Positions 2,719 to 24,948 are shown, counted from the stretch's first letter. The stretch: DNA of 64,000 bases from Escherichia coli (GCA_031701365.1 GCA_031701365.1_4118.1), one strand, 5' to 3'. Translations and numbers: made by a program. Notes: generated by a model not told the origin, from the sequence alone.

Positions 2719-3138
2719 ATGATTACATTCATTCAGTACTTAATCATTAAATTTTTTGGCTATTATACGATTGAGGGCAAAGCTACGCTTGCACATAAAA
2801 TCTTTGTAGCATTATGTACGGGTGATTATGACGTATTGAATAAGTACTGTAAATCTAAAGAATGTATTGATATAATGGCACTTCGTATCTATGAGTGCCG
2901 ATCCAATAGATACAATTTTTACCAGTACAGATTTGATAAAGAAGAATTTGATAGCATCAAAATGCTAAAGAATTTATGTAACAATAAAAAGAATATGCAT
3001 ATATCAGAATTTGTTGCTTTGTATTTTTATTTAAAAAGTTCATTGTATATGAACACGATGCAAAGATTCGATACTAGAATTAATGTATTCACCGATAAAG
3101 AATTTTATATATACGATAAATTCTTAGATAAGGTTTAA
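2719..3138 (+). CDS. hypothetical protein
   Basis: 139-aa ORF. Confidence 0.55.
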   Translation: MITFIQYLIIKFFGYYTIEGKATLAHKIFVALCTGDYDVLNKYCKSKECIDIMALRIYECRSNRYNFYQYRFDKEEFDSIKMLKNLCNNKKNMHISEFVALYFYLKSSLYMNTMQRFDTRINVFTDKEFYIYDKFLDKV

Positions 3139-3139
3139 T

Positions 3140-3637
3140 ATGACAACTGTTTATATTGATAAACGATTAAATTTATTGATTACCGATTCTAGAGTTACGT
3201 CAACTATACCACGAAACTTATTTGGTTTTTTCCCACTAAGACCAAAATATCAATATGGAGTTGTTAATCAAAAAACTTTATATGTACATGACCGTTTATT
3301 CAGTGCTAGTGGGTCAGTAAGTGAAATTGATAAAGTACTGGATTGGTTAATTAATAAAGTACCAGTTATACCTGACAGAAAGTTAAGTTGCCATTGTGTG
3401 CTTCTTTCTAAAGATTATGTTATTCATATGATTTTAACTAAAGGAAAGTTTATTAAAAAACTTGAATATCTACATGAAGACTACACTTTCTTTATGGGAA
3501 GTGGTGGAGAATACATGCTAGATGCTGCTATTCATGAAGAACATACAACTTTATATGATAAAGTGTTTAGTACTTTCATGGATGTGCATAACCATGATTG
3601 CTTCACAGATGATAATATTAATGTATATCGATTTTGA
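3140..3637 (+). CDS. hypothetical protein
   Basis: 165-aa ORF, starts 2 nt after previous stop. Confidence 0.6.
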   Translation: MTTVYIDKRLNLLITDSRVTSTIPRNLFGFFPLRPKYQYGVVNQKTLYVHDRLFSASGSVSEIDKVLDWLINKVPVIPDRKLSCHCVLLSKDYVIHMILTKGKFIKKLEYLHEDYTFFMGSGGEYMLDAAIHEEHTTLYDKVFSTFMDVHNHDCFTDDNINVYRF

Positions 3638-4658: not shown

Positions 4659-5180
4659 TGGGATGAAGTAAAAGTTTGTGATATAATTATCTTGTACAAT
4701 TCTGTTGGCATGATATTCATGTACCTGATCCACTCGAAAACGTAGAGGGCAGTTGAGCAGTCCGACAGTGCGAACAGCAAAAGAAACCCGTTAGATGTGG
4801 GCATAGTTTGAACCCCTCACGGCAATGCGGCTGTATAAAGAACCACGTTAGGATAGCTGGTGGTTCCTTGATAGACATATAAGGATAACACCTTACGAAT
4901 TATCTAAGGGAGAGTTATCGAATTTTGTACAGGAAAGTTGCGTCCAAAATTTGAGTACTCACATTAAGTATTTGATTGCATAGATACTTAATGAAGATAC
5001 ACTATGTTTAAAAGTGTAGACCGTCATATGAAACTGAAGTAGAGAGAAACAGGATGACCCGCTTTCGCACTCGTTATGAGTAATCTTCAATGCAATAGCT
5101 CTGATACCATCAGCGTCAAATTTCCCTCCTTGTGGGGGGAAGAAAAATCCCTTCCTCAAATCCCGTCAATATTAAAAGTC

Positions 5181-5209
5181 CTTGACAGTTATTAATCATT
5201 CGCGTAGAA
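5181..5209 (+). promoter_or_regulatory. sigma70-type promoter (TTGACA-17-TAGAAT)
   Basis: hexamers read directly; about 65 nt upstream of the 5275 ORF. Confidence 0.55.
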
Positions 5210-5274
5210 TACGTAGTATTAGAAGCGAACAGACATCTCGAAGAGATGGATGATTAACCATTAAGGAATATCCA

Positions 5275-5484
5275 ATGAATTCAGTAATCTTTTTAGTAGT
5301 CGCTTTCTCTGTTAATTCCGGTATACAAATAACCCCAATGAATTCCATGAATCAATGCATAGCAGTACGTGATAGTACATACGAACAAGTAAACAAAGAT
5401 ATTTGGATTACAGTTAATAAAGAACAAATGTGGTGTTACAATAGTAATACTAACACAAAGCTTATTGTAGGACAAACTCAATGA
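5275..5484 (+). CDS. hypothetical protein
   Basis: 69-aa ORF, RBS AAGGAA. Confidence 0.5.
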   Translation: MNSVIFLVVAFSVNSGIQITPMNSMNQCIAVRDSTYEQVNKDIWITVNKEQMWCYNSNTNTKLIVGQTQ

Positions 5485-5711: not shown

Positions 5712-6500
5712 ATGAGCACTATCGATGAACTGATTCAACGGAATTCAAAATATTACCAACCATCAGAAATTGTGGATAACATTACTAAATCTGAGTTTGG
5801 ACCGAACACACGCAAACTCATTCATGTAATGTCACGTGATGGCTTTAAATGTGATTGTTGTGGTGAATCAAATGTAGTATTCACTTTACACAAGCACAGT
5901 ACTAAAGAACGTTATAAATTCAGACCTTATGTACTTAAAGGGAAACGTCTTGTACGCATGACGTTAGACCATAACGTACTGGACTGTCTTCAGGGCGGTA
6001 ATGATAAAGAGAACATGACTGCATTGTGTGAAGATTGTAACGCATTACGTCAGCATAAGTTTGCTGAGTACAGTGAGTTTAAACACTGGTATCATAACGC
6101 GGATCGTTCAATCGAGCCTGACGTTAACTACTGCTTCATTGAGTACATTAAGAATGCAAAAGATACATACATTCTTAAATCAATGTCACCTATTACCGTG
6201 TTTCCTGAGAACCTATTCACTACATTAAAGAATAGTTTTATTGTAGGTGATATTGATGCATTCAAGTATTTTGACAAAGGTGCAAAACATTTTGAAATTC
6301 AATGTCTTAGTACTGCACTATGTGAACTCATTAAAATTTACATAAAAGAGTATTTGGGTATTGACAATGTACGTGTACCAGAGTATACTTTTTCTATTGA
6401 ATTCAATTGTGAATCAATCAAAGAGTTTGGAATTCTTTTCAATAAACAAATAGAACTTGCAATTCAAAACGAAATCAAGTACTATACTACTAACATTTAA
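5712..6500 (+). CDS. HNH-family endonuclease (putative free-standing homing endonuclease)
   Basis: 262 aa with CDCCGE zinc knuckle and LDHNVLDCLQGGNDKENMTALCEDCNALRQHK, matching the HNH signature DH..GG..N..LC..CN..K. Confidence 0.7.
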   Translation: MSTIDELIQRNSKYYQPSEIVDNITKSEFGPNTRKLIHVMSRDGFKCDCCGESNVVFTLHKHSTKERYKFRPYVLKGKRLVRMTLDHNVLDCLQGGNDKENMTALCEDCNALRQHKFAEYSEFKHWYHNADRSIEPDVNYCFIEYIKNAKDTYILKSMSPITVFPENLFTTLKNSFIVGDIDAFKYFDKGAKHFEIQCLSTALCELIKIYIKEYLGIDNVRVPEYTFSIEFNCESIKEFGILFNKQIELAIQNEIKYYTTNI

Positions 6501-6515
6501 TCAGAGGAAATTATC

Positions 6516-6698
6516 ATGCAAATCATCATTCTTATCGTTGGTATCATGTTGGGTGTTTATGGTCACTCATGGATGAACGAGAAGTTTCCTAATACGCGTC
6601 CTGAATATTGCAGTTCTAATGTATTCCAGAATGGTGAGAAACCAAAGGAAAGCATTGGTAAAAAGCTGGATAAAGTACTTGATGTGATCAATGAATAA
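6516..6698 (+). CDS. small membrane protein
   Basis: 60-aa ORF with N-terminal hydrophobic helix, RBS GAGGAAA. Confidence 0.5.
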   Translation: MQIIILIVGIMLGVYGHSWMNEKFPNTRPEYCSSNVFQNGEKPKESIGKKLDKVLDVINE

Positions 6699-6909
6699 GG
6701 GCCATAAAATGTTTAAACCGAATTCCAATGTTGGAAAGAAAGTTCAATTACTTGAGGATGTATCCACTCTGAGTGGGATTTTCCCAAGAGGTCACATCAT
6801 GACTATTATTGCCGAAACATCCCGTGGTTGGGACTTGGAAGATGCTGATGGTAATCGCATCCTTGAGGCTGGCTTCTATGGTCATCGTGAATATAAAATT
6901 ATCGATTAA
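6691..6909 (+). CDS. hypothetical protein
   Basis: 72-aa ORF overlapping previous stop. Confidence 0.55.
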   Translation: MNKGHKMFKPNSNVGKKVQLLEDVSTLSGIFPRGHIMTIIAETSRGWDLEDADGNRILEAGFYGHREYKIID

Positions 6910-7007
6910 GGATATAAAATGATGTTAGAGGCTATCGTTGGTATTGTTAGTTTTAGTCATCTGTGTTGCTTGCTTTGGGTATATGATGATTTTTGGTGAT
7001 TAATACT

Positions 7008-7035
7008 TGACAGAAGATATCAGTACTGTATAATG
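7008..7035 (+). promoter_or_regulatory. sigma70-type promoter with AGTACTG in spacer
   Basis: TTGACA 7008-7013, spacer ends CAGTACTG, TATAAT 7030-7035. Confidence 0.6.
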
Positions 7036-7064
7036 TTTATATCAAACGAAATCCACTTTAACAA

Positions 7065-7358
7065 ATGATAGGAAATATTATGTCTTTTTCTAAAGAAGAA
7101 CGTGACCTTATTAAAAAAGCAATCTGGTTTTATGCTAATGAAGGGAAGTGCGATGAAGAAAAAGCACGTGAACTGTGTAATATCTTTGAGAAGAAACAAG
7201 ATCTAAAAGTGTATCGTATCCGTGATTTGGATGAAGGGGATCGTATTGTCCTAGCTGAAACAAAAGAAGAAGCAGAACAAATCTTCACTGATAAAAACGA
7301 AAATCCACATTGGATGGAAGAAGTCTGTGATGTTAAAAAAGGTACTTATATCGATTGA
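7065..7358 (+). CDS. hypothetical protein
   Basis: 97-aa ORF, RBS TAGGAAA. Confidence 0.65.
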   Translation: MIGNIMSFSKEERDLIKKAIWFYANEGKCDEEKARELCNIFEKKQDLKVYRIRDLDEGDRIVLAETKEEAEQIFTDKNENPHWMEEVCDVKKGTYID

Positions 7359-7785: not shown

Positions 7786-8036
7786 TGAAATACATTGTAG
7801 CAGTACTCGTCGCATTTTTACTCACTGCATGTGATGCTTCAACCAAAGAACGCACAAGTGATTTTGAACTCCCTACTGAATTAAAAGAAGCAGGATGTAA
7901 GATTTATCGTATGCAACAGGAAGGTGCTGGTGCAACGTTGTATACAGTTTATTGTCCTAATGCAAACACCAGTACTGGATACACTAGCGGAAAAACACGA
8001 ATCAACACTTCAGTGATTAATGGAGTACAACAATGA
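7785..8036 (+). CDS. putative lipoprotein
   Basis: 83 aa; signal peptide ending in lipobox LTAC. Confidence 0.6.
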   Translation: MKYIVAVLVAFLLTACDASTKERTSDFELPTELKEAGCKIYRMQQEGAGATLYTVYCPNANTSTGYTSGKTRINTSVINGVQQ

Positions 8037-8401
8037 GCCTTGATACAACCCGTGCAACAGATTTATTCACTCGTCTGAATGATGAAGAATATCTTGCTGA
8101 AATAAAGTACAAGCTTGAAAAACTGGCTCGAAGTGCTGAAGTAATTGAAGTTAAAGGTCATTTACCAATGGATCAATTCCATACGTTCAAAGAAGATATG
8201 GTTTATTATCCAAATGAAATTTGGATTGAGTGGGAACATTGGACTAACAAAACTCTACGCATTGAAGGTTATTGTGTGAATTATGAATCTGAACCTGGTG
8301 ATGTTACAAAAACTCTCTCCATTTGGTGTACAAAAACACATGAACTAGTTGAGGTGAATTTGAATTATATGAAAGGTTTCCGTTGGGGTGATATTCAATG
8401 A
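8033..8401 (+). CDS. hypothetical protein
   Basis: 122-aa ORF, ATGA overlap. Confidence 0.6.
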   Translation: MSLDTTRATDLFTRLNDEEYLAEIKYKLEKLARSAEVIEVKGHLPMDQFHTFKEDMVYYPNEIWIEWEHWTNKTLRIEGYCVNYESEPGDVTKTLSIWCTKTHELVEVNLNYMKGFRWGDIQ

Positions 8402-8673
8402 TTAAAAAACTATTGACAGTTGTCTTTGTATTCTGTACAATGTTTCTTACAGCATGTAATGATGACGGCAGGTTTAGTGCAAAAGACTTAGTTCGTCAGG
8501 ATTGTAAATTCACAGGCAAGTCTTTTATTAACGAGTATGAAATATGTACACAATCAGGTCGTATCTGTGGTGGTTGGGAAAAACGTCAGGAGCGATTGTA
8601 TGTATATGAATGCCCTGGACATCACAACAAAGTACTAAGCACACACAAACTTGTTTATGATAAGGTTGAATAA
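8398..8673 (+). CDS. putative lipoprotein
   Basis: 91 aa; signal peptide with lipobox LTAC; Cys-rich. Confidence 0.6.
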   Translation: MIKKLLTVVFVFCTMFLTACNDDGRFSAKDLVRQDCKFTGKSFINEYEICTQSGRICGGWEKRQERLYVYECPGHHNKVLSTHKLVYDKVE

Positions 8674-12901: not shown

Positions 12902-13093
12902 ATGTTGATTTATCAAGGTGATAATATTCGTGTTATGCAGCATCCCTACTTACAAATCTTTGATGTGCAGCAGTATATGGAAGGTGATGACCCAAGAACC
13001 TATGGTCGTAAGTATGATTACTTCACTGTAAAGCAGTGTAAAAATATTAACGAAGTACGACAATTAGTTCAAGAACTTCAAAACAAAGGTTGA
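12902..13093 (+). CDS. hypothetical protein
   Basis: start moved to the internal ATG at 12902 of the 12848 ORF to avoid overlap. Confidence 0.45.
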   Translation: MLIYQGDNIRVMQHPYLQIFDVQQYMEGDDPRTYGRKYDYFTVKQCKNINEVRQLVQELQNKG

Positions 13094-18937: not shown

Positions 18938-18969
18938 GGGTTGACTTCGGTCAGCCTTTTTTGTTATGA
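18938..18969 (+). terminator. intrinsic terminator fused to promoter
   Basis: GGGTTGAC-TTCG-GTCAGCC, T6, then TATGAT 17 nt after TTGACT. Confidence 0.75.
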
Positions 18970-18998
18970 TGTTGATATTAACTACAGAGGATAAAGTA

Positions 18999-19640
18999 AT
19001 GACTAAGCAAGAAATATTCAAAACTTTAATTGACATTTTGCGTCCATCAAAAACTCGTTGTGCGATGGAGTTTGATATTCCTTATGCTGAACGCGTAATC
19101 TTTCCACAAGTTAAAGCTGCTGGACTTACTTTGCTTGGAATGGGGATGTACTCTGTAGTAGTTGAACATAAAAACTATCCTGGGCGTGCATTTAAAGTAA
19201 CCACATCCCGTTGGGATGGTTTTCGTGCTTATGCAAAGTACTGCATTGAAAACGCAGGAACCAAGTTTCTTCCAGTGATCTACAGTGCAAACGAACAAGG
19301 AAACTTTGGATGGTATGAGATGGACAAGTACTATCCTATAATTAAACAAAAAAATAATTATGATGACTTTGTTAGTACTAAAATTGGAGATTTATATTCT
19401 TATGCACATGCTGGTCAGTACGCTACTTCAGTGAATGATATGCGTGGAAATTCTGAAGAGATTGCTATTGCGACGGTCGCTGCTAACATCATGAAAGAGT
19501 TTCACGGGCGTTTTGTACCAGACATTCATTCCAGTAATGTCATGATGGATAAAGATGGCAATGTATTCATTACTGATCCTCTTTCGTGTGATGTACGTAG
19601 AGAAATACCAGTTACTGAAGAAGATCCAGTTTTTTATTGA
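18999..19640 (+). CDS. hypothetical protein, possible kinase-like fold
   Basis: start set at ATG 18999 (RBS AGAGGA); DIHSSNVMMDKDGNVFITDP resembles a kinase catalytic loop and metal-binding segment. Confidence 0.5.
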   Translation: MTKQEIFKTLIDILRPSKTRCAMEFDIPYAERVIFPQVKAAGLTLLGMGMYSVVVEHKNYPGRAFKVTTSRWDGFRAYAKYCIENAGTKFLPVIYSANEQGNFGWYEMDKYYPIIKQKNNYDDFVSTKIGDLYSYAHAGQYATSVNDMRGNSEEIAIATVAANIMKEFHGRFVPDIHSSNVMMDKDGNVFITDPLSCDVRREIPVTEEDPVFY

Positions 19641-19701
19641 CAGAACTGATGTTCTGGTGTATTCTTAATAAACCATAAAAATTGCGGTAAAGGATAAAAT
19701 C

Positions 19702-19983
19702 ATGCGTTCATTTGAAAACTTAATAGGTAAGCATCTTTTATCTGAAATTGATGCAGACGTTAAAGAATTATCCAAATCAAAAAGTTACATTCATTTGGAT
19801 GAACTGTTTATTAAGTACGGTGAGATTGGTTTTAAGTCATTATTTGTTTTTACTATGAAAGTACATAGTTTAAAGTACTTCGATTTGAGTGCTAAAGATG
19901 GTGAACCGAATCTATATTACATGTATTACCTTAAGAACAAAGATGAAGCTAATACATTACTCTCTGAATATATATTGGGGTAA
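19702..19983 (+). CDS. hypothetical protein
   Basis: 93-aa ORF, RBS AAAGGA. Confidence 0.6.
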   Translation: MRSFENLIGKHLLSEIDADVKELSKSKSYIHLDELFIKYGEIGFKSLFVFTMKVHSLKYFDLSAKDGEPNLYYMYYLKNKDEANTLLSEYILG

Positions 19984-19985
19984 AA

Positions 19986-20324
19986 ATGGAACAATATTTT
20001 GAATTAATAAACAAAGTATCATTTTATGTAGTATCTTTGGTTTGGGTGTATTATATGTTTTGCTACATTATTGCATTCTTCCGATACACTACTTTATATG
20101 AACGTATCTACTATGATGCCCCAATTTCATTCTTGATGTTTTGTGCATGTACGTGGGGAATATTAGAAGTACTGATATGTGGGTATAGTACTGATGAATT
20201 AAATCTGGTATCGGTCTTGACTGGGTTTTCATTTGTTGTTATGATAGCTGCCGTTCCAGTATGGTTGTTCTTTGGACTAGTTCATCGCATTGATATATGG
20301 CGTTCTAATATCCCTGAAAAGTAA
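19986..20324 (+). CDS. small membrane protein, paralog family M (A1)
   Basis: 112 aa, 3 hydrophobic helices, C-terminal WRSNIPEK. Confidence 0.65.
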   Translation: MEQYFELINKVSFYVVSLVWVYYMFCYIIAFFRYTTLYERIYYDAPISFLMFCACTWGILEVLICGYSTDELNLVSVLTGFSFVVMIAAVPVWLFFGLVHRIDIWRSNIPEK

Positions 20325-20333
20325 GGATTTGTA

Positions 20334-20675
20334 ATGATTTATTACACTAACATGTTTGCCTATGCTGTTGCTTGCATTTACATTGTTTACTTCTTATTCG
20401 GTGGAGTACTGTGCTTCTTTAAGTACAAAACGTTGTTCAACCGAATGTACCCAAATCATCCAATTGTAGTTGTACTTTTGATTCTTTCAGTTTCTCAAAT
20501 AATCGTTGAAACTACAATGGGTATCAGTAGTGTACATTATAGTTTTGGTACTATAGTAATTATTACTATGCTTATTGCATACATTTTAGTACTTGGATAT
20601 GGTATCTTTGGTAATATTGGTATGAAAATGTATCATCGAATTAAAACATTACGTGATAATCTACCGGAGCGTTGA
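20334..20675 (+). CDS. small membrane protein, paralog family M (A2)
   Basis: 113 aa, C-terminal LRDNLPER. Confidence 0.65.
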   Translation: MIYYTNMFAYAVACIYIVYFLFGGVLCFFKYKTLFNRMYPNHPIVVVLLILSVSQIIVETTMGISSVHYSFGTIVIITMLIAYILVLGYGIFGNIGMKMYHRIKTLRDNLPER

Positions 20676-20676
20676 T

Positions 20677-21021
20677 ATGTATAATTTGAACCTAATCTCA
20701 TATATTATAACAACACTGTTTACATTCTATGCCTTTGTTGGTATAATCCTACTGTACTTTAAATTTTATAAAGTGTTTAACCGTTTCTATCCTTCAATGG
20801 AGAATGAGTTTTTCTTTGTGTTGTACGTAGGTTACACATTAATGGCTACATGTTTCACTGTAGCCGATGGTGTCATCGGCATTAAAACTGATTCCCCAAA
20901 TGGTAGTACGCTGGTTGCATTTATTCTTACCGGATTCCTTGCAACTTATATTGCCTTCATTACAACATGGTCAGTGGTTGAATTTCTCTTGCGACTACGA
21001 AAGAATATGCCGAATCGATAG
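20677..21021 (+). CDS. small membrane protein, paralog family M (A3)
   Basis: start set at ATG 20677 just after previous stop; C-terminal LRKNMPNR. Confidence 0.6.
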   Translation: MYNLNLISYIITTLFTFYAFVGIILLYFKFYKVFNRFYPSMENEFFFVLYVGYTLMATCFTVADGVIGIKTDSPNGSTLVAFILTGFLATYIAFITTWSVVEFLLRLRKNMPNR

Positions 21022-21030
21022 GAGACATAT

Positions 21031-21285
21031 ATGTTTGCATTGCGTAACAAAAACACTAAAGAATTATTATGTATTGATACCGTATGGGATTGTGCGGGTT
21101 CAACTACAGTTCTTGAAGAAGGAACTGGATATTGCGTGTTTGTTGTACATGATAGGAATGAACTCGAATTATTACTTGCTGAGTTCAATGCTGGTGGTAA
21201 TCCTAACAGTACTGAATACCCTGAGATTATCAATCCAGCACCTCCAGGTTCATATGAAATCCTACCACTATGGGTGTTGAAATAA
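21031..21285 (+). CDS. hypothetical protein
   Basis: 84-aa ORF, RBS TAGGAGA. Confidence 0.55.
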   Translation: MFALRNKNTKELLCIDTVWDCAGSTTVLEEGTGYCVFVVHDRNELELLLAEFNAGGNPNSTEYPEIINPAPPGSYEILPLWVLK

Positions 21286-21665
21286 TGCGACAAATGTACA
21301 AAGTAACCGAGCTAAACAAGCGTCTGGTTAAACAATCTATGTTTGAGGATAAAGAGTCTTACTATAACTTTAAACGTGCTGTAGAGGCTGCTATCCACAT
21401 CCAGAAGCTTAAAGAACGTGGTTGTATTATTCTGGAAAATGGTTCGGAAGTTGTAACGGATGACTTTAGTGTAGCGTTTGATGTTTCACCTGATGGGACG
21501 CTATCAATGCCCCGCTTAGGAACTGGAAACATGACTGTTTGGGTTGGCTTCACTATGGGGAATGTACCTGGTACTGTGTACGTAGATGATGCGGAATTGA
21601 AAGACAGTTTCAAAAACTTATCTTATCTTGAACCACAATACGCACATGAAATGAATTTATTTTGA
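21285..21665 (+). CDS. hypothetical protein
   Basis: start set at ATG 21285 (TAATG overlap) inside the 21270 ORF. Confidence 0.55.
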   Translation: MRQMYKVTELNKRLVKQSMFEDKESYYNFKRAVEAAIHIQKLKERGCIILENGSEVVTDDFSVAFDVSPDGTLSMPRLGTGNMTVWVGFTMGNVPGTVYVDDAELKDSFKNLSYLEPQYAHEMNLF

Positions 21666-21666
21666 G

Positions 21667-21725
21667 TTGACAAACACATTCAGTACTGTATAATGCTTAT
21701 CAAGGGGGATGAACTTCTCATCCCT
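21667..21725 (+). promoter_or_regulatory. promoter plus 5' stem-loop (PeSL-like)
   Basis: TTGACA, spacer ending CAGTACTG, TATAAT, then hairpin GGGATGAA-CTTC-TCATCCC before the RBS. Confidence 0.6.
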
Positions 21726-21742
21726 ACAATCGAGGAACTACC

Positions 21743-22297
21743 ATGATTACTTTTAAGAAAACTGCTAACCACATCCATGAAATCTACATTAACGGTCATA
21801 AAGCTGGCCTTCTTCGTTTACTCGCCCATCACCCTGATGCTACCGTATCTGATAATGAACCTAAAGATTGGCGTGTCTTTTTCTTTGGAAAGTACAGTGA
21901 TTTTCAAGTATCAAACCTGAAGAACATTCGTTCAGTATGCACGTTAACTGAAATTAAAGAAAAGTTAGCACAAGCATTGAAAACTAATCCAGATGGTGTT
22001 CTTCCACCTGATAACTTTGTAGAGAAAGGTTATGCCTTAGCTCATTTCAAAGATGGTACTATTCAATCTATCAGTACTGAATATGAATATCATTGGACTG
22101 AGTACTTCACTTATGGTTCGAGTAATACATTGATGGATTCACGTAGTAAATTGGAAGAAGTACTGACTCGTATGAATGAACGCGAGCGTCAGTTATATGA
22201 CAAACCAGAAATGTGGAGTTCAACTTACATTGACCGTATTGACTATGTTATTATGACTCCAATCTTTGACACTGCTTACTATGATTCTTTGAAATAA
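21743..22297 (+). CDS. hypothetical protein
   Basis: 184-aa ORF. Confidence 0.65.
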   Translation: MITFKKTANHIHEIYINGHKAGLLRLLAHHPDATVSDNEPKDWRVFFFGKYSDFQVSNLKNIRSVCTLTEIKEKLAQALKTNPDGVLPPDNFVEKGYALAHFKDGTIQSISTEYEYHWTEYFTYGSSNTLMDSRSKLEEVLTRMNERERQLYDKPEMWSSTYIDRIDYVIMTPIFDTAYYDSLK

Positions 22298-22308
22298 GGA
22301 TAACTTAT

Positions 22309-22485
22309 ATGAAACTACGTACTCGTAATCGACTGATGGATGCACTGTACCATGAACAGCTTTCACTGAATGAAGTGAAGCGTCAGTTAATGTACACATA
22401 TCAGTTTCCCGCTCGCATTGCAAAACAACGTGCTAAAGAATTGCTGAAAGAAGCAATCGAGTACTGGGAATCTGATTCGTACTAA
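22309..22485 (+). CDS. hypothetical small protein (58 aa)
   Basis: not in ORF track; RBS AAGGATAA, basic helical sequence. Confidence 0.45.
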   Translation: MKLRTRNRLMDALYHEQLSLNEVKRQLMYTYQFPARIAKQRAKELLKEAIEYWESDSY

Positions 22486-22513
22486 TTGTCACGTTAATTA
22501 AGTGAGGCGATAA

Positions 22514-22765
22514 ATGAAAATTTTATTAGTTCTAATACTACTAATTGTTTTACCATTTACGTTAGTATCCCCTGAACTTGCATGGAATGTGTTTGTGTAC
22601 TTACTATGTACTATGGTGGTAAATGGTATCTTGTTCTTAGTTCTATTCATAAATGGAATAGGACACGGTGGAGGATGGACCAGTACTGCTAATATTGTAC
22701 ATAAAACCACTATGTCTTTATTTGTAGTGTGGAATTTATTCTGGACTTGGTTTGTGTTCTTCTAA
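22514..22765 (+). CDS. small membrane protein
   Basis: 83 aa, hydrophobic helices, RBS GAGG. Confidence 0.6.
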   Translation: MKILLVLILLIVLPFTLVSPELAWNVFVYLLCTMVVNGILFLVLFINGIGHGGGWTSTANIVHKTTMSLFVVWNLFWTWFVFF

Positions 22766-22773
22766 TTAAAAAT

Positions 22774-23145
22774 ATGAATATAGATTTGAAAGGTGCAACA
22801 CGAACTGTTATCCTCATTGGTGAATATGCTATCAAGATTCCAACCTTTAAAAGTTGGAAGCTATTCTTAACAGGGATGATAGCTAACCTCAATGAACGTT
22901 CGTGGATGCAGTACTCCAATCGTAGTGATACTGGTATCTGTCCTACTTTGTGGTCATCATGTACTGGACTAGTAACTGTACAGAAACGTTGTAAGCCAGT
23001 TCAACATAGGGGTTTATTTTGGGTGGAGTTGTGTGCTTTAGCATTGAATTCAGAGTTAAGTACTGACTTCTTTTATTCAGATGCGAAGCCAGAAAACTTT
23101 GGTTATCTGAATGGTAAGTTAGTTAAACTTGATTACGGAGATTAA
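22774..23145 (+). CDS. small kinase-like protein
   Basis: start set at ATG 22774; ILIGEYAIKIP resembles a VAIK lysine motif and DAKPENFGYLNGKLVKLDYGD resembles a catalytic loop plus DFG-like DYG. Confidence 0.45.
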   Translation: MNIDLKGATRTVILIGEYAIKIPTFKSWKLFLTGMIANLNERSWMQYSNRSDTGICPTLWSSCTGLVTVQKRCKPVQHRGLFWVELCALALNSELSTDFFYSDAKPENFGYLNGKLVKLDYGD

Positions 23146-23227
23146 TATGTACGCGTGAAAGTCTAGTAGAAATTGAATACGACTAAGTAAACCAAGATTT
23201 TTTTGAAGTTACACAAAGGAACATAAC

Positions 23228-23422
23228 ATGTTATTAGTATATTCAAAGCGTTTCTGGATTTCATTTATTGTACTATCGCTAATCGGCTTCGGTGTGAGTA
23301 TACTCTTTTCGTGGGATGATTTGGATACATGGTATTATGAAGTTCCGTGGTACATGAAGATGGCTCCTTGTTACGCGGCATTGTTCGTGTCCTTCCTTAT
23401 TGTTGTCTTCAGTGAGGATTAG
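23228..23422 (+). CDS. small membrane protein
   Basis: 64 aa, two hydrophobic helices, RBS AAAGGAA. Confidence 0.55.
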   Translation: MLLVYSKRFWISFIVLSLIGFGVSILFSWDDLDTWYYEVPWYMKMAPCYAALFVSFLIVVFSED

Positions 23423-23489
23423 TTGATGTAGTGGCAGTCAACTCGATGGGTATGAGATTGTTAAGTTGGGAATTATTGAGTAAAAGGTA

Positions 23490-23518
23490 TTGACACCGTT
23501 CCCATTTAACAGTATTAT
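23490..23518 (+). promoter_or_regulatory. sigma70-type promoter (TTGACA-17-TATTAT)
   Basis: read directly; leader TGTACACCAAGTAATGAGGAAT shared with the 23830 promoter. Confidence 0.55.
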
Positions 23519-23555
23519 GTATGTACACCAAGTAATGAGGAATAGGAGTGAAACA

Positions 23556-23816
23556 ATGTTAACACCTGAACAGCAAGAAGCCCAAATCGCTAAACACAGC
23601 CTTGACTTTCCTAACGGTATGACAGTTAAAGAACTGAAAGCACTCATTGCTGATTGGCCTGAAACTAACCAATACGGTGAAGATACTAAAGTACTGATCA
23701 GCACTCAAGATGGTATTGATTGCACAGTGCATTCATCTTGGTGCAGTGAAGTTCGTTTCAATGCAAACGATGAACTGGTATATGATCTTAGTTTGGATGT
23801 AGAAGACCGCAATTAA
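23556..23816 (+). CDS. hypothetical protein
   Basis: start set at ATG 23556 (RBS GGAG); the 23490 ORF begins inside the promoter. Confidence 0.55.
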   Translation: MLTPEQQEAQIAKHSLDFPNGMTVKELKALIADWPETNQYGEDTKVLISTQDGIDCTVHSSWCSEVRFNANDELVYDLSLDVEDRN

Positions 23817-23829
23817 GACAAATAAAAGG

Positions 23830-23858
23830 ATTGACACTAGTTCTATAGTATTGTAACA
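23830..23858 (+). promoter_or_regulatory. sigma70-type promoter (TTGACA-17-TAACAT)
   Basis: read directly. Confidence 0.5.
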
Positions 23859-23887
23859 TGTGTACACCAAATAATGAGGAATCTGAA

Positions 23888-24247
23888 ATGGCATCTTTAA
23901 CTGAAATCACTGAACTGAATCCACTGGCAATTAGTACTGTTCAACGCACAAAGACGTTTTACTTTCGTCCAGTCGATGGTTGGAAGCGTGGTGAGAATGG
24001 CGACTATCGTGTTCTGGAAGATAATCTCGTTGAACGTGTGAATTCAGAACTTAATGTTTATGAAGGTGTTACGGTTGTACGTTCACATTCTCGTTATTTC
24101 GAATACTACATTGAGTCTTCATCGGTAAATGAAAACCGTTCATTTTCTGTTGACAATACTGATGCACTGCGTAATGCAGTATCTATTTTGTGCAATATTG
24201 CAGAAGAAATGGGTTTAACTATCGTAACGATTGGTGAGTTAGCATGA
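23888..24247 (+). CDS. hypothetical protein
   Basis: start set at ATG 23888 (RBS TGAGGAA). Confidence 0.55.
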   Translation: MASLTEITELNPLAISTVQRTKTFYFRPVDGWKRGENGDYRVLEDNLVERVNSELNVYEGVTVVRSHSRYFEYYIESSSVNENRSFSVDNTDALRNAVSILCNIAEEMGLTIVTIGELA

Positions 24248-24441
24248 TTAAAACTTTTATTCTTACAATGGTATTTGGTTCTTATGGTTATGGTGGTGGT
24301 GTGGCGACCGTTGAGTATCCAGTATACGAAGATTGCAAAGCTGCTGCTGAAGTGTTTGTAAAAACAACTAAAGATTTGGCTACCGTTACTGATGCCAAAG
24401 CGTGGTGTACAACTAAAAATACACCAGAAACTAAGAAGTAA
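24244..24441 (+). CDS. hypothetical small protein
   Basis: 65 aa, ATGA overlap. Confidence 0.55.
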   Translation: MIKTFILTMVFGSYGYGGGVATVEYPVYEDCKAAAEVFVKTTKDLATVTDAKAWCTTKNTPETKK

Positions 24442-24450
24442 AAAATAAAG

Positions 24451-24482
24451 GGTTGACAGTAGTCATCCCTTTTTGCTATAAT
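24451..24482 (+). terminator. terminator-promoter cassette (imperfect hairpin variant)
   Basis: AGGGTTGAC-AGTAG-TCATCCCT, T5, then TATAAT 18 nt after TTGACA. Confidence 0.6.
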
Positions 24483-24510
24483 CATTTCATCGAAACGAGA
24501 GGATGAAAAC

Positions 24511-24948
24511 ATGACACGCATTAACTTAGTACACGTTAAAGAACTTGCTGACCAACATCTGATGGCTGAATACCGTGAACTCCCACGTGTGTTTGGTGCT
24601 GTACAAAAACATGTTCAAGCAGGTAAACGAGTACGTGATTTCAAAATTAACAGTACTTATCTGTTAGGTTCAGGTCATGTAACATTCTTCTATAACAAGT
24701 TATTGTACTTACAGAAGCGTCATATTGATATTGTTAACGAATGTTTGCGTCGTGGTATGAAGATTCAAAACATTGAAGTAAACGACATTAGCAGCTTCCC
24801 TGCGGAGTTTTGCCAGGACTATGTGCCATCTGATTCAGAGATTAAAATGTCTCGTGACCGTTTGATTGAGAAGCTCCAGATGAAGCCTACGTGGTATAAG
24901 TTTACTGATGTTGAGTTACCTGAGTACTATACCGAGATGATTAAGTAA
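24511..24948 (+). CDS. denV: pyrimidine-dimer DNA glycosylase / endonuclease V
   Basis: 145 aa. N-terminus [31 protein letters not shown]...GKRVRDFKI...GHVTFFY and C-terminal PTWYK closely match T4 endonuclease V as recalled from memory; catalytic Thr2, Arg22, Glu23, Arg26 are present. Confidence 0.85.

Follow-up and report, generated by a model that had tools for sequence, protein, structure and literature searches.

Two probable cut-down kinase-fold proteins of an Asteriusvirus-like jumbo phage: a T7K-type kinase and a candidate minimal kinase core

We analysed a 64,000-nucleotide stretch of DNA from Escherichia coli (GCA_031701365.1; hereafter the window), and find it fairly probable that two of its small genes encode kinase-fold proteins cut down to the part that binds ATP and performs catalysis, gene 1 being of the T7K type and gene 2 a core with phosphotransfer function. 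Both open reading frames lie on the + strand where a preliminary description of the sequence had placed them, and the conservation of the kinase motifs in both is far beyond chance, while no sequence similarity between the two is detectable.

Genomic setting

The window is ~98% identical to the Asteriusvirus jumbo phages 121Q, G17 and PBECO4, relatives with genomes of roughly 350 kb, and its genome is therefore not of the T4 type. The preliminary description had remarked that phage kinases that reprogram the host are known in T7 and that they are not typical of T4-type genomes, a framing that does not fit an Asteriusvirus jumbo phage; moreover, the gene 2 family is also present in true Tevenvirinae, such as Dhakavirus JS10 and Tequatrovirus G4507.

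Genes 1 and 2 both belong to a block in which small + strand genes have sigma-70-like promoters, and directly 5' of gene 1 is a putative terminator/promoter cassette recognized by its match to consensus:

18939 to 18970, + strand: hairpin GGTTGAC-TTCG-GTCAGCC followed by a T-run

The TTGACT of this hairpin (18941-18946) would serve at the same time as a -35 box, its -10 partner being TATGAT (18965-18970). The window holds nine copies of the hairpin against none expected, and a terminator is annotated at the equivalent place in G17. Matches to the promoter consensus numbered 36 against 43 expected from shuffled sequence, that is, fewer than chance.

A T7K-type kinase reduced to its kinase domain

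The elements of gene 1, with their counterparts in T7K, are as follows:

18999 to 19640, + strand: gene 1, protein kinase of the T7 gp0.7 (T7K) type, kinase domain only, 213 aa (from PHROG, BLASTP and AF2)
19137 to 19154, + strand: Gly-rich loop G47-M-G49-M-Y51-S52, aligned with T7K G-N-G-H-F-S
19194 to 19196, + strand: β3 lysine K66 in A-F-K-V, aligned with T7K V-I-K-V
19521 to 19538, + strand: catalytic loop D175-I-H177-S-S-N180, aligned with T7K D-M-H-S-G-N
ending at 19583, + strand: DFG-equivalent T192-D193-P194-L195, aligned with T7K T-D-P-V-S

The ATG at 18999 is the likelier start, given its GAGGA Shine-Dalgarno sequence, its use as the start in G17 and phAPEC6, and the fact that the homologues open with MTK; the other candidate, the ATG at 18966, falls within the -10 box of the promoter-like site that precedes the gene.

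Gene 1 matched the profiles of phrog_15752, "protein kinase" (E 1e-91), and phrog_2828, "serine-threonine kinase" (E 7.8e-17), and BLASTP aligned its residues 41-210 with residues 68-230 of T7 gp0.7 (E 5e-9), with 26% identity across ~170 residues and all of the catalytic motifs in register. An HMM made from the alignment of gene 1 homologues (A2) matched T7 gp0.7 at 3e-15. These searches bear out the earlier description of the product as kinase-like, and the motif on which it drew, D175-IHSSNVMMDKDGNVFIT-D193-P194 at nt 19521-19580, is real. Across the 16 homologues of alignment A2, G47, G49, K66, D175, H177, N180 and T192-D193-P194 are invariant, and S196 aligns with Ser216, the T7K autophosphorylation site; both Ser216 and the DPV motif of T7K have been described (PMC13645617).

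The AF2 model (pLDDT 91.7) has kinase topology and runs through three N-terminal helices, the N-lobe, two helices, the catalytic loop and D-P-L, with helices absent after the DPL motif and the C-terminus lying 20 aa past the DFG-equivalent D193. Gene 1 shares with T7K and its homologues, such as JSS1_004 (PHROG 2828/15752), the motifs G-x-G-x-[FY]-S, the β3 lysine, D-x-H-S-x-N and T-D-P-x, and shares with T7K a kinase that ends about 20-27 residues past the DFG-equivalent position; it differs from T7K in having DPL in place of DPV and in the absence from its 213 aa (359 aa in T7K) of the C-terminal host-shutoff (SO)/DNA-binding domain. T7K itself is a hyperpromiscuous anti-defence kinase with its kinase domain in residues 1-242 and a shutoff/DNA-binding domain that targets nucleic-acid-binding proteins; its jumbophage homologues, G17 included, have lost the shutoff domain, and in the jumbophage clade the third position of the motif is Leu rather than Val (PMC13645617).

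The identity of gene 1 is already known and is no new observation: its homologues in 121Q, G17 and phAPEC6 carry the label "protein kinase", the 2026 Nature paper on T7K (PMC13645617) names the one in G17, and in the Sharanji paper the homologue WNN14432.1 is assigned in this way too. By homology, gene 1 would most likely act as a jumbo-phage T7K, phosphorylating host proteins on Ser/Thr early in infection, and this phosphorylation may contribute to host takeover or anti-defence.

A kinase-like core that ends at the DYG motif

Gene 2 consists of the following elements, with conservation counted over 160 representatives of its family at pairwise identities of at most 50%:

22774 to 23145, + strand: gene 2, minimal protein-kinase-like core, 123 aa, phrog_4301 (from motifs and AF2 fold)
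22792 to 22803, + strand: β1-β2 loop G7-A-T9-R10, in place of GxGxxG (G7 156/160, R10 156/160)
22834 to 22836, + strand: β3 lysine K21 in Y-A-I-K-I-P (158/160)
22885 to 22896, + strand: αC motif N38-L-N-E41, with the Glu at 22894-22896 (E41 160/160, N38 156/160)
23080 to 23097, + strand: catalytic loop D103-A-K105-P-E-N108, then G110 (from conservation and HMM alignment to TTK)
23131 to 23139, + strand: predicted Mg-binding motif D120-Y-G122 (D120 155/155)

The motifs EYAIKIP (E17-Y-A-I-K21-I-P23, nt 22822-22842) and DAKPEN...DYG, from which a minimal protein-kinase or lipid-kinase core had been proposed, are real, and their catalytic residues are near-invariant across the family. The protein comprises β1-β3, αC, β4-β5, αE, the catalytic loop and β7-β8; beyond D-Y-G122 there is only D123 before the TAA stop (23143-23145). 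Absent from it are the activation segment, the APE motif and helices αF-αI, as well as the GxGxxG loop and the His and Arg of HRD, in the place of which stand the G-A-T-R loop and a Y-S-D triad.

Modelled alone, the 123 residues give a confident AF2 structure (pLDDT 90.3) with αC at residues 28-43, and a Foldseek search of PDB and BFVD with this model matched kinases, including annotated phage or giant-virus kinases, with OspG and HopBF1 among the structural neighbours. The profile of gene 2 aligns the catalytic loop to DYG with "SDLKPANF...IDFG" of TTK, a sub-threshold match (E ~0.2-0.9), and the 194-aa Asteriusvirus paralogue aligns with Pfam Pkinase from β3 to DFG at E 0.0024 (17.8 bits against a cut-off of 31.7). 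Fold and sequence both point to kinases, and nothing specific favours the lipid-kinase alternative. For both genes, then, profile or fold searches gave kinase similarity, the opposite of the result that would have spoken against the preliminary description. No Pfam match was found for gene 2 at E up to 10, nor for 94 family members, there is no NCBIfam match for gene 2, and phrog_4301 has no Pfam model; the PADLOC defence models matched neither gene 1 nor gene 2 at E up to 1. Against the T7K family, hhalign gave a probability below 1%, so that no sequence relationship is detectable. Membership in the YrbL/PhoP-regulated kinase-like family (PF10707) was considered and rejected: hhalign of the gene 2 alignment (A3) against E. 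coli YrbL gave a probability of 0.3%, only two distant family members had PF10707 matches, N-terminal and sub-threshold (~26 bits against a cut-off of 31.5), and BLASTP aligned the LGxGxHRK loop only.

A family of near-constant length

Gene 2 matches phrog_4301 ("unknown function" in PHROGs v4) at E 1.1e-43, over profile positions 40-167 of 225, and its relatives from 14 other loci or proteins belong to the same PHROG. An HMM search collected 1213 clusters, nearly all of 110-135 aa, and the majority form is a protein of ~120 aa that ends at DYG. The gene is "hypothetical" in all Asteriusvirus records among the matches listed, and among the records examined a kinase label, given to a few relatives by annotators or authors, occurs only on longer ones of 142-209 aa with N-terminal extensions and/or tails of 15-25 residues past DYG, among them Erwinia phage AH04 gene 186 ("serine/threonine kinase") and a Ralstonia phage RP12 protein. 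Other members are the 194-aa paralogue (Sharanji gp063/WNN14351.1) and 142-aa PaMx11-like proteins.

The abrupt end of the reading frame one residue past DYG, together with the partial coverage of the phrog_4301 profile and the 95-aa ORF (gp216) that follows the gene 2 homologue in 121Q after a 1-nt gap, could be taken to mean that gene 2 is a decaying remnant, or half of a split kinase with its C-lobe in the next gene. We regard this as very improbable. In 154 aligned representatives from very different phages the protein ends a median of 1 residue beyond the DYG glycine (5th-95th percentile 0-19), a family-wide conservation of length that effectively refutes such a reading. In addition, gp216 is absent from this window, each lineage examined has different genes 3' of the gene 2 relative (Nu1, rnlB, denV, unrelated small ORFs), AF2 models the 123 residues confidently by themselves, and identity is 94-99% among the Asteriusvirus isolates listed as full-length matches. 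That the family ends at DYG with its catalytic residues kept points instead to a free-standing kinase core.

Catalytic residues and the question of activity

The catalytic loop of the family reads D-x-K-x-x-N or E-x-K-x-x-S, and the two ends of the motif co-vary: in the top 20 patterns listed, D103/N108 occurs in at least 87 sequences and E103/S108 in at least 40, with 2 D/S exceptions. This near-strict co-variation suggests that positions 103 and 108 work jointly. The E-x-K-x-x-S form, which replaces D-x-K-x-x-N in about a third of the wider family, is unusual among active kinases and counts against activity of the family.

We also weighed whether gene 2 binds nucleotides without catalysis (as a pseudokinase, decoy or sponge), acting through its hold on ATP, another nucleotide or a host protein instead of through phosphotransfer, or is active only with a C-lobe surface supplied by the host, in the manner of OspG. 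The absence of the post-DFG C-lobe, of the GxGxxG loop and of the HRD His/Arg is in keeping with this proposal, as is the fact that binding is how many of the small accessory proteins of phages work, and the partner-dependent OspG and HopBF1 are among its structural neighbours. On the other hand, more than 1000 diverged clusters retain the catalytic-base position (D/E103), K105 and the metal-ligand positions (N/S108, D120), and the substitutions at 103 and 108 appear to compensate for each other, a pattern expected of an enzyme and not of a pure binder; we consider a non-catalytic module unlikely.

With the Hanks-type kinases (TTK/MPS1, PknB; PF00069) gene 2 shares the β3 Lys, αC Glu, D-x-K-P-E-N and D-[FY]-G, but these kinases are of ~260 aa against 123, with an activation segment, APE and αF-αI that gene 2 lacks, and have GxGxxG and H-R-D where gene 2 has G-x-T-R and Y-S-D. 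OspG (Shigella, a 169-aa chain), HopBF1 (176), the archaeal RNA kinases Ark1/ArkI (173-216), Rio and Bud32 are likewise reduced kinases that lack a classical activation loop, but all of them keep post-DFG helices and at least ~170 aa, while gene 2 has no such helices and is ~50 residues shorter; sequence similarity of gene 2 to these proteins was not detected. OspG and HopBF1 are weapons injected into the cells of another organism, a use that parallels the proposed role of gene 2 in takeover of the host by the phage, and their activity depends on host partners, which for OspG is E2~ubiquitin. The likeness of gene 2 to T7K is one of concept only, both being C-lobe-truncated phage kinase cores without an activation loop: gene 2 has D-x-K-x-x-N and D-Y-G where T7K has D-x-H-x-x-N and D-P-V, and the three N-terminal helices of the T7K-type gene 1 are missing from it. 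Nevertheless, the kinase domain of T7K, taken to its stated boundary (residues 1-242), has only ~27 residues past the DFG-equivalent and yet is very active, and so provides a precedent for gene 2.

Neighbourhoods and the nature of the substrate

The gene 2 family is spread over T4-like, jumbo, lambdoid and PaMx11-like phages, where it occupies accessory or moron positions with neighbours that are not conserved between lineages, a siting that fits a self-contained accessory function. The relative in JS10 is directly upstream of rnlB, that in G4507 just upstream of a tRNA cluster, and another (locus L045) near an RNA ligase and a PNK-like AAA_33 gene. In PaMx11-like contigs the stop and start codons of denV and the gene 2 relative overlap, while one gene separates the two in 121Q and 1.4 kb in this window. 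Further sites include the lysis-Nu1 moron site, positions upstream of terminase and the neighbourhood of a DNA polymerase.

Given that some relatives adjoin such repair or tRNA genes (rnlB, the tRNA cluster, denV, RNA ligase, AAA_33), and that a protein without a protein-docking lobe might plausibly act on a small or generic substrate, gene 2 could be a kinase for something other than protein: an RNA or tRNA hydroxyl (cf. ArkI/Ark1), a DNA or RNA end in repair, a signalling nucleotide or another small molecule. The genes stand in hyperplastic accessory regions, so that adjacency is weak evidence, and the neighbours change from lineage to lineage. Furthermore, K105, a lysine of the protein-kinase type, is present in 135 of the 160 representatives; to our knowledge the lysine of D-x-K-x-x-N is a signature of Ser/Thr protein kinases that APH and choline-type kinases lack. 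A non-protein substrate is accordingly improbable in our estimation.

Proposed mechanism and implications

In our view gene 2 most likely works as an active phosphotransferase, which the phage would use in host takeover or anti-defence, and we infer that it would be expressed early and act on protein. ATP-Mg would be bound through K21-E41, N108 and D120, and transfer of the γ-phosphate would use D103 and K105. With no activation loop and a non-RD (Y-S-D) triad, the enzyme should be constitutively open, and with no substrate-docking lobe it should either accept a broad range of substrates promiscuously, as T7K does, or rely on a partner protein to present them. In canonical kinases the post-DFG C-lobe anchors the hydrophobic spines; as this lobe and its anchoring are missing from gene 2, the stability and activity of the protein alone are uncertain.

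We therefore put forward as a tentative and still doubtful proposal that the gene 2 family, at ~120 aa and ending at D-Y-G, is a catalytically competent free-standing core, which would make it the smallest protein kinase known. Were this true, phosphotransfer would not require the post-DFG C-lobe. The protein might then be a constitutive, motif-blind kinase that floods host proteins with phosphate, and as such a second T7K-like anti-defence strategy, of independent evolutionary origin and present in T4-like, jumbo, lambdoid and PaMx11-like phages; or else gene 2 might recruit a host protein to stand in for the substrate-binding lobe.

Identity of the Phage Sequence

The 5.1-kb stretch around both genes is ~98% identical to Escherichia phages 121Q, G17, PBECO4, phAPEC6 and Sharanji and to other members of Asteriusvirus, which are jumbo phages of roughly 350 kb, and given this match the T4-type framing of the preliminary description was inexact. 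The two open reading frames that it had reported are both present on the plus strand, and their counterparts in 121Q are gp205 (gene 1) and gp215 (gene 2). HMM searches of all open reading frames in the window found one copy only of each kinase.

Gene 1, gene 2 and the gene 2 motifs
18999 (likelier) or 18966 to 19640, plus strand: gene 1, T7 gp0.7 (T7K)-type kinase
22774-23145, plus strand: gene 2, mini-kinase, 123 aa
23080-23097, plus strand: DAKPEN of gene 2
23131-23139, plus strand: DYG of gene 2, followed by one Asp and the TAA stop

The motifs that had been noted were also confirmed, the string DIHSSNVMMDKDGNVFITDP at residues 175-194 of gene 1, and EYAIKIP, DAKPEN and DYG at residues 17-23, 103-108 and 120-122, respectively, of gene 2.

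Gene 1 Belongs to the T7K Family

The reading of gene 1 as a kinase was correct but already established, through T7K homology, prior annotations and two papers. Its homologues are labelled "protein kinase" in 121Q, G17 (CDD PHA00451) and phAPEC6, and the Sharanji genome paper describes the homologue WNN14432.1 as a T7-kinase homologue with a possible anti-defence function. A study of T7K (PMC13645617, Nature 2026) showed the kinase to be hyperpromiscuous and to disarm defence systems, and listed its jumbophage homologues as "including ... Escherichia phage G17".

The ATG at 18999 is the likelier start of gene 1, since it is preceded by a GAGGA Shine-Dalgarno sequence, matches the start in both G17 and phAPEC6, and yields the MTK with which the homologues begin, and since the alternative ATG at 18966 falls within the -10 hexamer of a promoter-like site (18941-18970). 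The protein matches phrog_15752 ("protein kinase; inhibitor of host transcription...") over its whole length (E = 1e-91) and phrog_2828, the T7 gp0.7 family (E = 8e-17), and BLASTP aligns its residues 41-210 with residues 68-230 of T7 gp0.7 at 26% identity (E = 5e-9). The aligned motifs (gene 1/T7K) are GMGMYS/GNGHFS, AFKV/VIKV, DIHSSN/DMHSGN and ITDPLS/ITDPVS, and G47, G49, K66, D175, H177, N180 and T192-D193-P194 are invariant in 16 homologues with identities down to 38%. Searches of Pfam, NCBIfam and PADLOC with gene 1 gave no match except a chance-level NCBIfam SurA hit far under the cut-off (E = 0.039), and a single-sequence search of the PDB returned only PAK4 and GRK2 (E ~1); PF27024 is assigned to its homologues in precomputed tables. 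AlphaFold models the protein with confidence (pLDDT 91.7): three N-terminal helices precede a five-stranded N-lobe that includes helix αC, and two further helices lead to the catalytic loop and the DPL strand. No helix follows the DPL motif, and 20 residues remain after the DFG-equivalent.

Gene 1 thus represents the T7K family without its shutoff domain, and is already known and ordinary by itself. It probably phosphorylates host proteins in the manner of T7K, and, whereas T7K carries a DNA-binding shutoff domain, gene 1 is without one and would not be steered to nucleic-acid-binding proteins as T7K is. Its remaining interest is as a natural "kinase domain only" version, which could therefore be used to test whether T7K-style hyperpromiscuity and anti-defence depend on that domain.

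Gene 2 Belongs to a Large Family of Mostly Short Proteins

The sole family match of gene 2 is to phrog_4301 ("unknown function"; E = 1e-43). Searches of Pfam, NCBIfam and PADLOC gave zero matches, a Pfam scan of 94 family members gave noise only, and a single-sequence PDB search gave one irrelevant match. The close homologues are all 118-127 aa, and the family profile, run against 1.84 billion cluster representatives, recovered 1213 clusters with E <= 1e-3 (644 with E <= 1e-10), nearly all of 110-135 aa and matching up to the end of the profile. The family thus numbers no fewer than 1213 clusters (50% identity) and at least 120 sequenced phage isolates. One database protein of 1073 aa (P0069) consists of ~16 tandem copies of a ~64-aa unit matching positions 51-101 of the gene 2 profile; it could be a genuine tandem amplification, or an artefact of assembly or translation.

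An alignment of 160 representatives (median length 123 aa) revealed the conserved positions. E41 is present in all 160 and K21 in 158, followed by G7, R10, P23 and N38 (156 each), G65 and G110 (154 each), T/S9 (149), Y121 (142) and K105 (135), while D120 occupies its column in all 155 sequences aligned there. Four of these correspond to canonical protein-kinase residues, K21 to the β3 lysine, E41 to the αC glutamate, K105 to the catalytic-loop lysine and D120 to the Mg-binding aspartate. The catalytic loop takes two forms, D-x-K-x-x-N, as in gene 2, or E-x-K-x-x-S, and positions 103 and 108 co-vary almost strictly, with at least 87 D/N sequences, 40 E/S and 2 D/S exceptions among the top 20 listed patterns. 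Such co-variation is the pattern expected of compensatory change in a working active site. In one rival reading gene 2 is a non-catalytic nucleotide-binding module.

Gene 2 Has a Kinase Fold

The AlphaFold model of gene 2 (pLDDT 90.3, pTM 0.80) contains strands β1-β3, helix αC (residues 28-43), β4, β5, αE (79-92), a short helix, and β7/β8 around the catalytic loop and DYG. Foldseek against the PDB matched it to Lpg2603 and TTK with probability ~1.0, and against BFVD to small phage proteins of Aeromonas PS1, PaMx11, CBB, RaK2 and Lacusarx, to a "Protein kinase domain-containing protein" of Ralstonia phage RP12, and to giant-virus Ser/Thr kinases. In profile searches the family HMM aligns its stretch from the catalytic loop through DYG ("sdakpenfGylngklvkiDyg") with TTK, at sub-threshold E values of 0.2-0.9. 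The sequence-level support is weaker than, but consistent with, the fold.

Gene 2 has a kinase fold and kinase catalytic residues. It is without anything past the DFG motif, without the GxGxxG loop, which is replaced by GATR, and without the His and Arg of HRD, which is replaced by YSD. The fold assignment is solid, and catalytic activity is putative. By sequence gene 2 belongs to phrog_4301 and falls outside Pfam Pkinase and YrbL; kinship with YrbL (PF10707), prompted by two precomputed matches, was not supported on testing. Comparison of the gene 1 and gene 2 family profiles by hhalign gave a probability of <1%, and we therefore consider the two genes to be independent kinase lineages.

Asteriusviruses also encode a 194-aa paralogue of gene 2 (Sharanji gp063, WNN14351.1) that falls in phrog_4301 (E = 1e-41), matches Pfam Pkinase from β3 to DFG at a sub-threshold E of 0.0024, and appears as "another protein kinase" in the Sharanji paper. 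Its gene (minus strand, 8027-8611 of the Sharanji locus) encodes GAGSSR, VIKV, DIRKQN and LDYG motifs and a 22-aa tail. A counterpart is absent from the window by tblastn; in Sharanji the gene lies ~42 kb downstream, and the corresponding place would be just beyond the window end. With WNN14351.1 as the third small kinase-like protein, Asteriusviruses encode three reduced kinases.

Gene 2 Is a Complete Protein

A split gene or remnant, with 121Q gp216 as the missing C-lobe, was considered and rejected, gp216 being absent from the window and the family ending at DYG everywhere. Past the DYG glycine the 160 representatives have a median of 1 residue (5th-95th percentile 0-19), and the gene downstream of the gene 2 homologue differs in every lineage. 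The family-wide length distribution, the absence of gp216 and the varying downstream genes together indicate that gene 2 is not a fragment.

T7K provides a precedent for an active kinase that ends soon after the DFG-equivalent. Its kinase domain, a very active kinase, comprises residues 1-242 by the published boundary (PMC13645617), which together with the position of the DPV motif leaves ~27 residues past the DFG-equivalent, against 20 in gene 1. The minimal kinases that are structural neighbours of gene 2 are larger, with chains of 169 aa (OspG), 176 aa (HopBF1) and 173 aa (Ark1) compared with 123 aa.

Distribution and Genomic Context

By tblastn, relatives of gene 2 occur in at least 120 sequenced phages, and among the records listed only gene 186 of Erwinia phage AH04 (163 aa) carries a kinase label, "serine/threonine kinase".

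Mini-kinase genes in other phages (coordinates local to each locus)
JS10, Dhakavirus (Tevenvirinae): 2977-3345, 2 nt upstream of rnlB (RNA ligase 2)
G4507, Tequatrovirus (Tevenvirinae): 2501-2881, just upstream of a 12-gene tRNA cluster
A7_1, Vequintavirinae member: downstream of DNA polymerase
Skure, Seuratvirus: among hypothetical genes, upstream of a putative holin
Lambdoid Salmonella prophages: between Rz and Nu1, the classic moron site
Also present: PaMx11-like siphoviruses; Pseudomonas OBP; Erwinia, Klebsiella, Ralstonia and Aeromonas jumbo phages

The genome of Aeromonas phage PS2 was matched at three positions, which probably represent three copies. A survey of 35 viral contigs, 8 metagenome or genome loci and 6 annotated phages revealed no universal neighbour or operon partner; adjacency to denV, rnlB and tRNA genes is lineage-specific. 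On a metagenomic contig (L045) the genes close to the mini-kinase (5001-5306) include those for an RNA ligase, a NADAR protein and a PNK-like AAA_33 protein; the RNA-gene neighbours here and in T4-like phages could reflect an RNA-related role, or merely hyperplastic regions.

In five PaMx11-like viral contigs (L024, L026, L027, L028 and L030), a lineage unrelated to 121Q, a DenV-like pyrimidine-dimer glycosylase is encoded directly downstream of the mini-kinase, and in L028 the mini-kinase stop and the denV ATG overlap as ATGA (~6327-6330). In 121Q one gene separates the mini-kinase from denV (6495-7010 of its locus). Between 121Q and the PaMx11-like siphovirus lineage, protein identity is 37% for DenV and 29% for the mini-kinases. 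The pairing, which is not universal, could represent a co-transferred module or a functional link.

The region 3' of gene 2 is a local mosaic rearrangement relative to 121Q. Comparison of window 23146-24948 with 6158-7243 of the 121Q locus located the following, gp216 and denV (gp217) being missing directly after gene 2.

Features 3' of gene 2 in the window
23228-23422: gp218 homologue, next after gene 2
23442-23483: C-terminus of 121Q gp216, matched exactly over 13 codons and the stop (LDGYEIVKLGIIE, then stop)
24511-24948: copy of denV, pyrimidine-dimer glycosylase, 145 aa, further downstream

Both kinases lie in a plus-strand block of small genes between copies of a hairpin-plus-promoter cassette at 18939 and 25172, with further strong sigma-70-like sites in the block at 21667, 23490 and 24453, and early transcription of the block by host RNA polymerase is plausible from these predicted sites. 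The 18-nt hairpin (GGTTGAC-TTCG-GTCAGCC, then a T-run) occurs in 9 copies in the window versus 0 expected by chance, on the plus strand at 13088, 16330, 16513, 17854, 18939, 25172, 27199, 58054 and 62097. Its TTGACT doubles as a -35 box with TATNAT ~17-18 nt downstream, and so it looks like a terminator/promoter cassette punctuating the plus-strand block; its antisense yields a recurring spurious peptide, '...ADRSQPF...'.

Between the kinases are three tandem small open reading frames (19986-20324, 20334-20675 and 20653-21021; 112-122 aa) that appear hydrophobic and membrane-protein-like, with similar C-terminal tails (...NIPEK, ...NLPER and ...NMPNR). The first two group as paralogues by BLASTP, and the three correspond to 121Q gp207-209, annotated as hypothetical. 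The product of 21031-21285 (MFALRNK...) and 121Q gp216 (6140-6427 of its locus; MYALYNK...) have N-termini alike by eye and end in a similar ...EI(L/V)...(V/I) tail, and may belong to a small paralogous family scattered through the block. In the phAPEC6 record (MK817115.1; 4285-4949 of its locus) neither the gene 2 homologue nor the small membrane protein before it is annotated as a CDS, and the published phAPEC6 proteomic tables therefore cannot include the former.

Proposed Function and Significance

Gene 2 probably uses the K21-E41 pair together with N108 and D120 to bind ATP-Mg, and D103 and K105 to catalyse phosphotransfer. The lysine of D-x-K-x-x-N is a signature of Ser/Thr protein kinases, and its presence in gene 2 therefore favours protein substrates. 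On the other hand, gene 2 might be a nucleic-acid or small-molecule kinase, a reading suggested by the structural neighbours Ark1 and APH and by its position, in certain lineages, beside rnlB, tRNA genes or denV. Without an activation loop or docking lobe a gene 2 protein kinase should be constitutively open, and then promiscuous or partner-dependent; as a rival proposal, it would be an OspG-type kinase activated by a host protein.

Our literature searches (phrog_4301, minimal phage kinase folds, phage kinome) found no description of the mini-kinase family, within incomplete coverage that makes an earlier description possible. Gene 2 is the more valuable of the two genes, representing a large phage family that has no functional annotation and whose members comprise precisely the ATP-binding and catalytic parts conserved in the protein-kinase-like fold. 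If inactive, it would be a minimal pseudokinase or nucleotide-binding module of a new kind. If active, it would set a new lower size limit for kinases, ~120 aa versus ~170-200 aa (OspG, HopBF1, Ark1), would provide a natural experiment on the need for the kinase C-lobe, and would constitute a second widespread class of phage kinase for host takeover or anti-defence, one that includes T4-like coliphages and Salmonella prophages.
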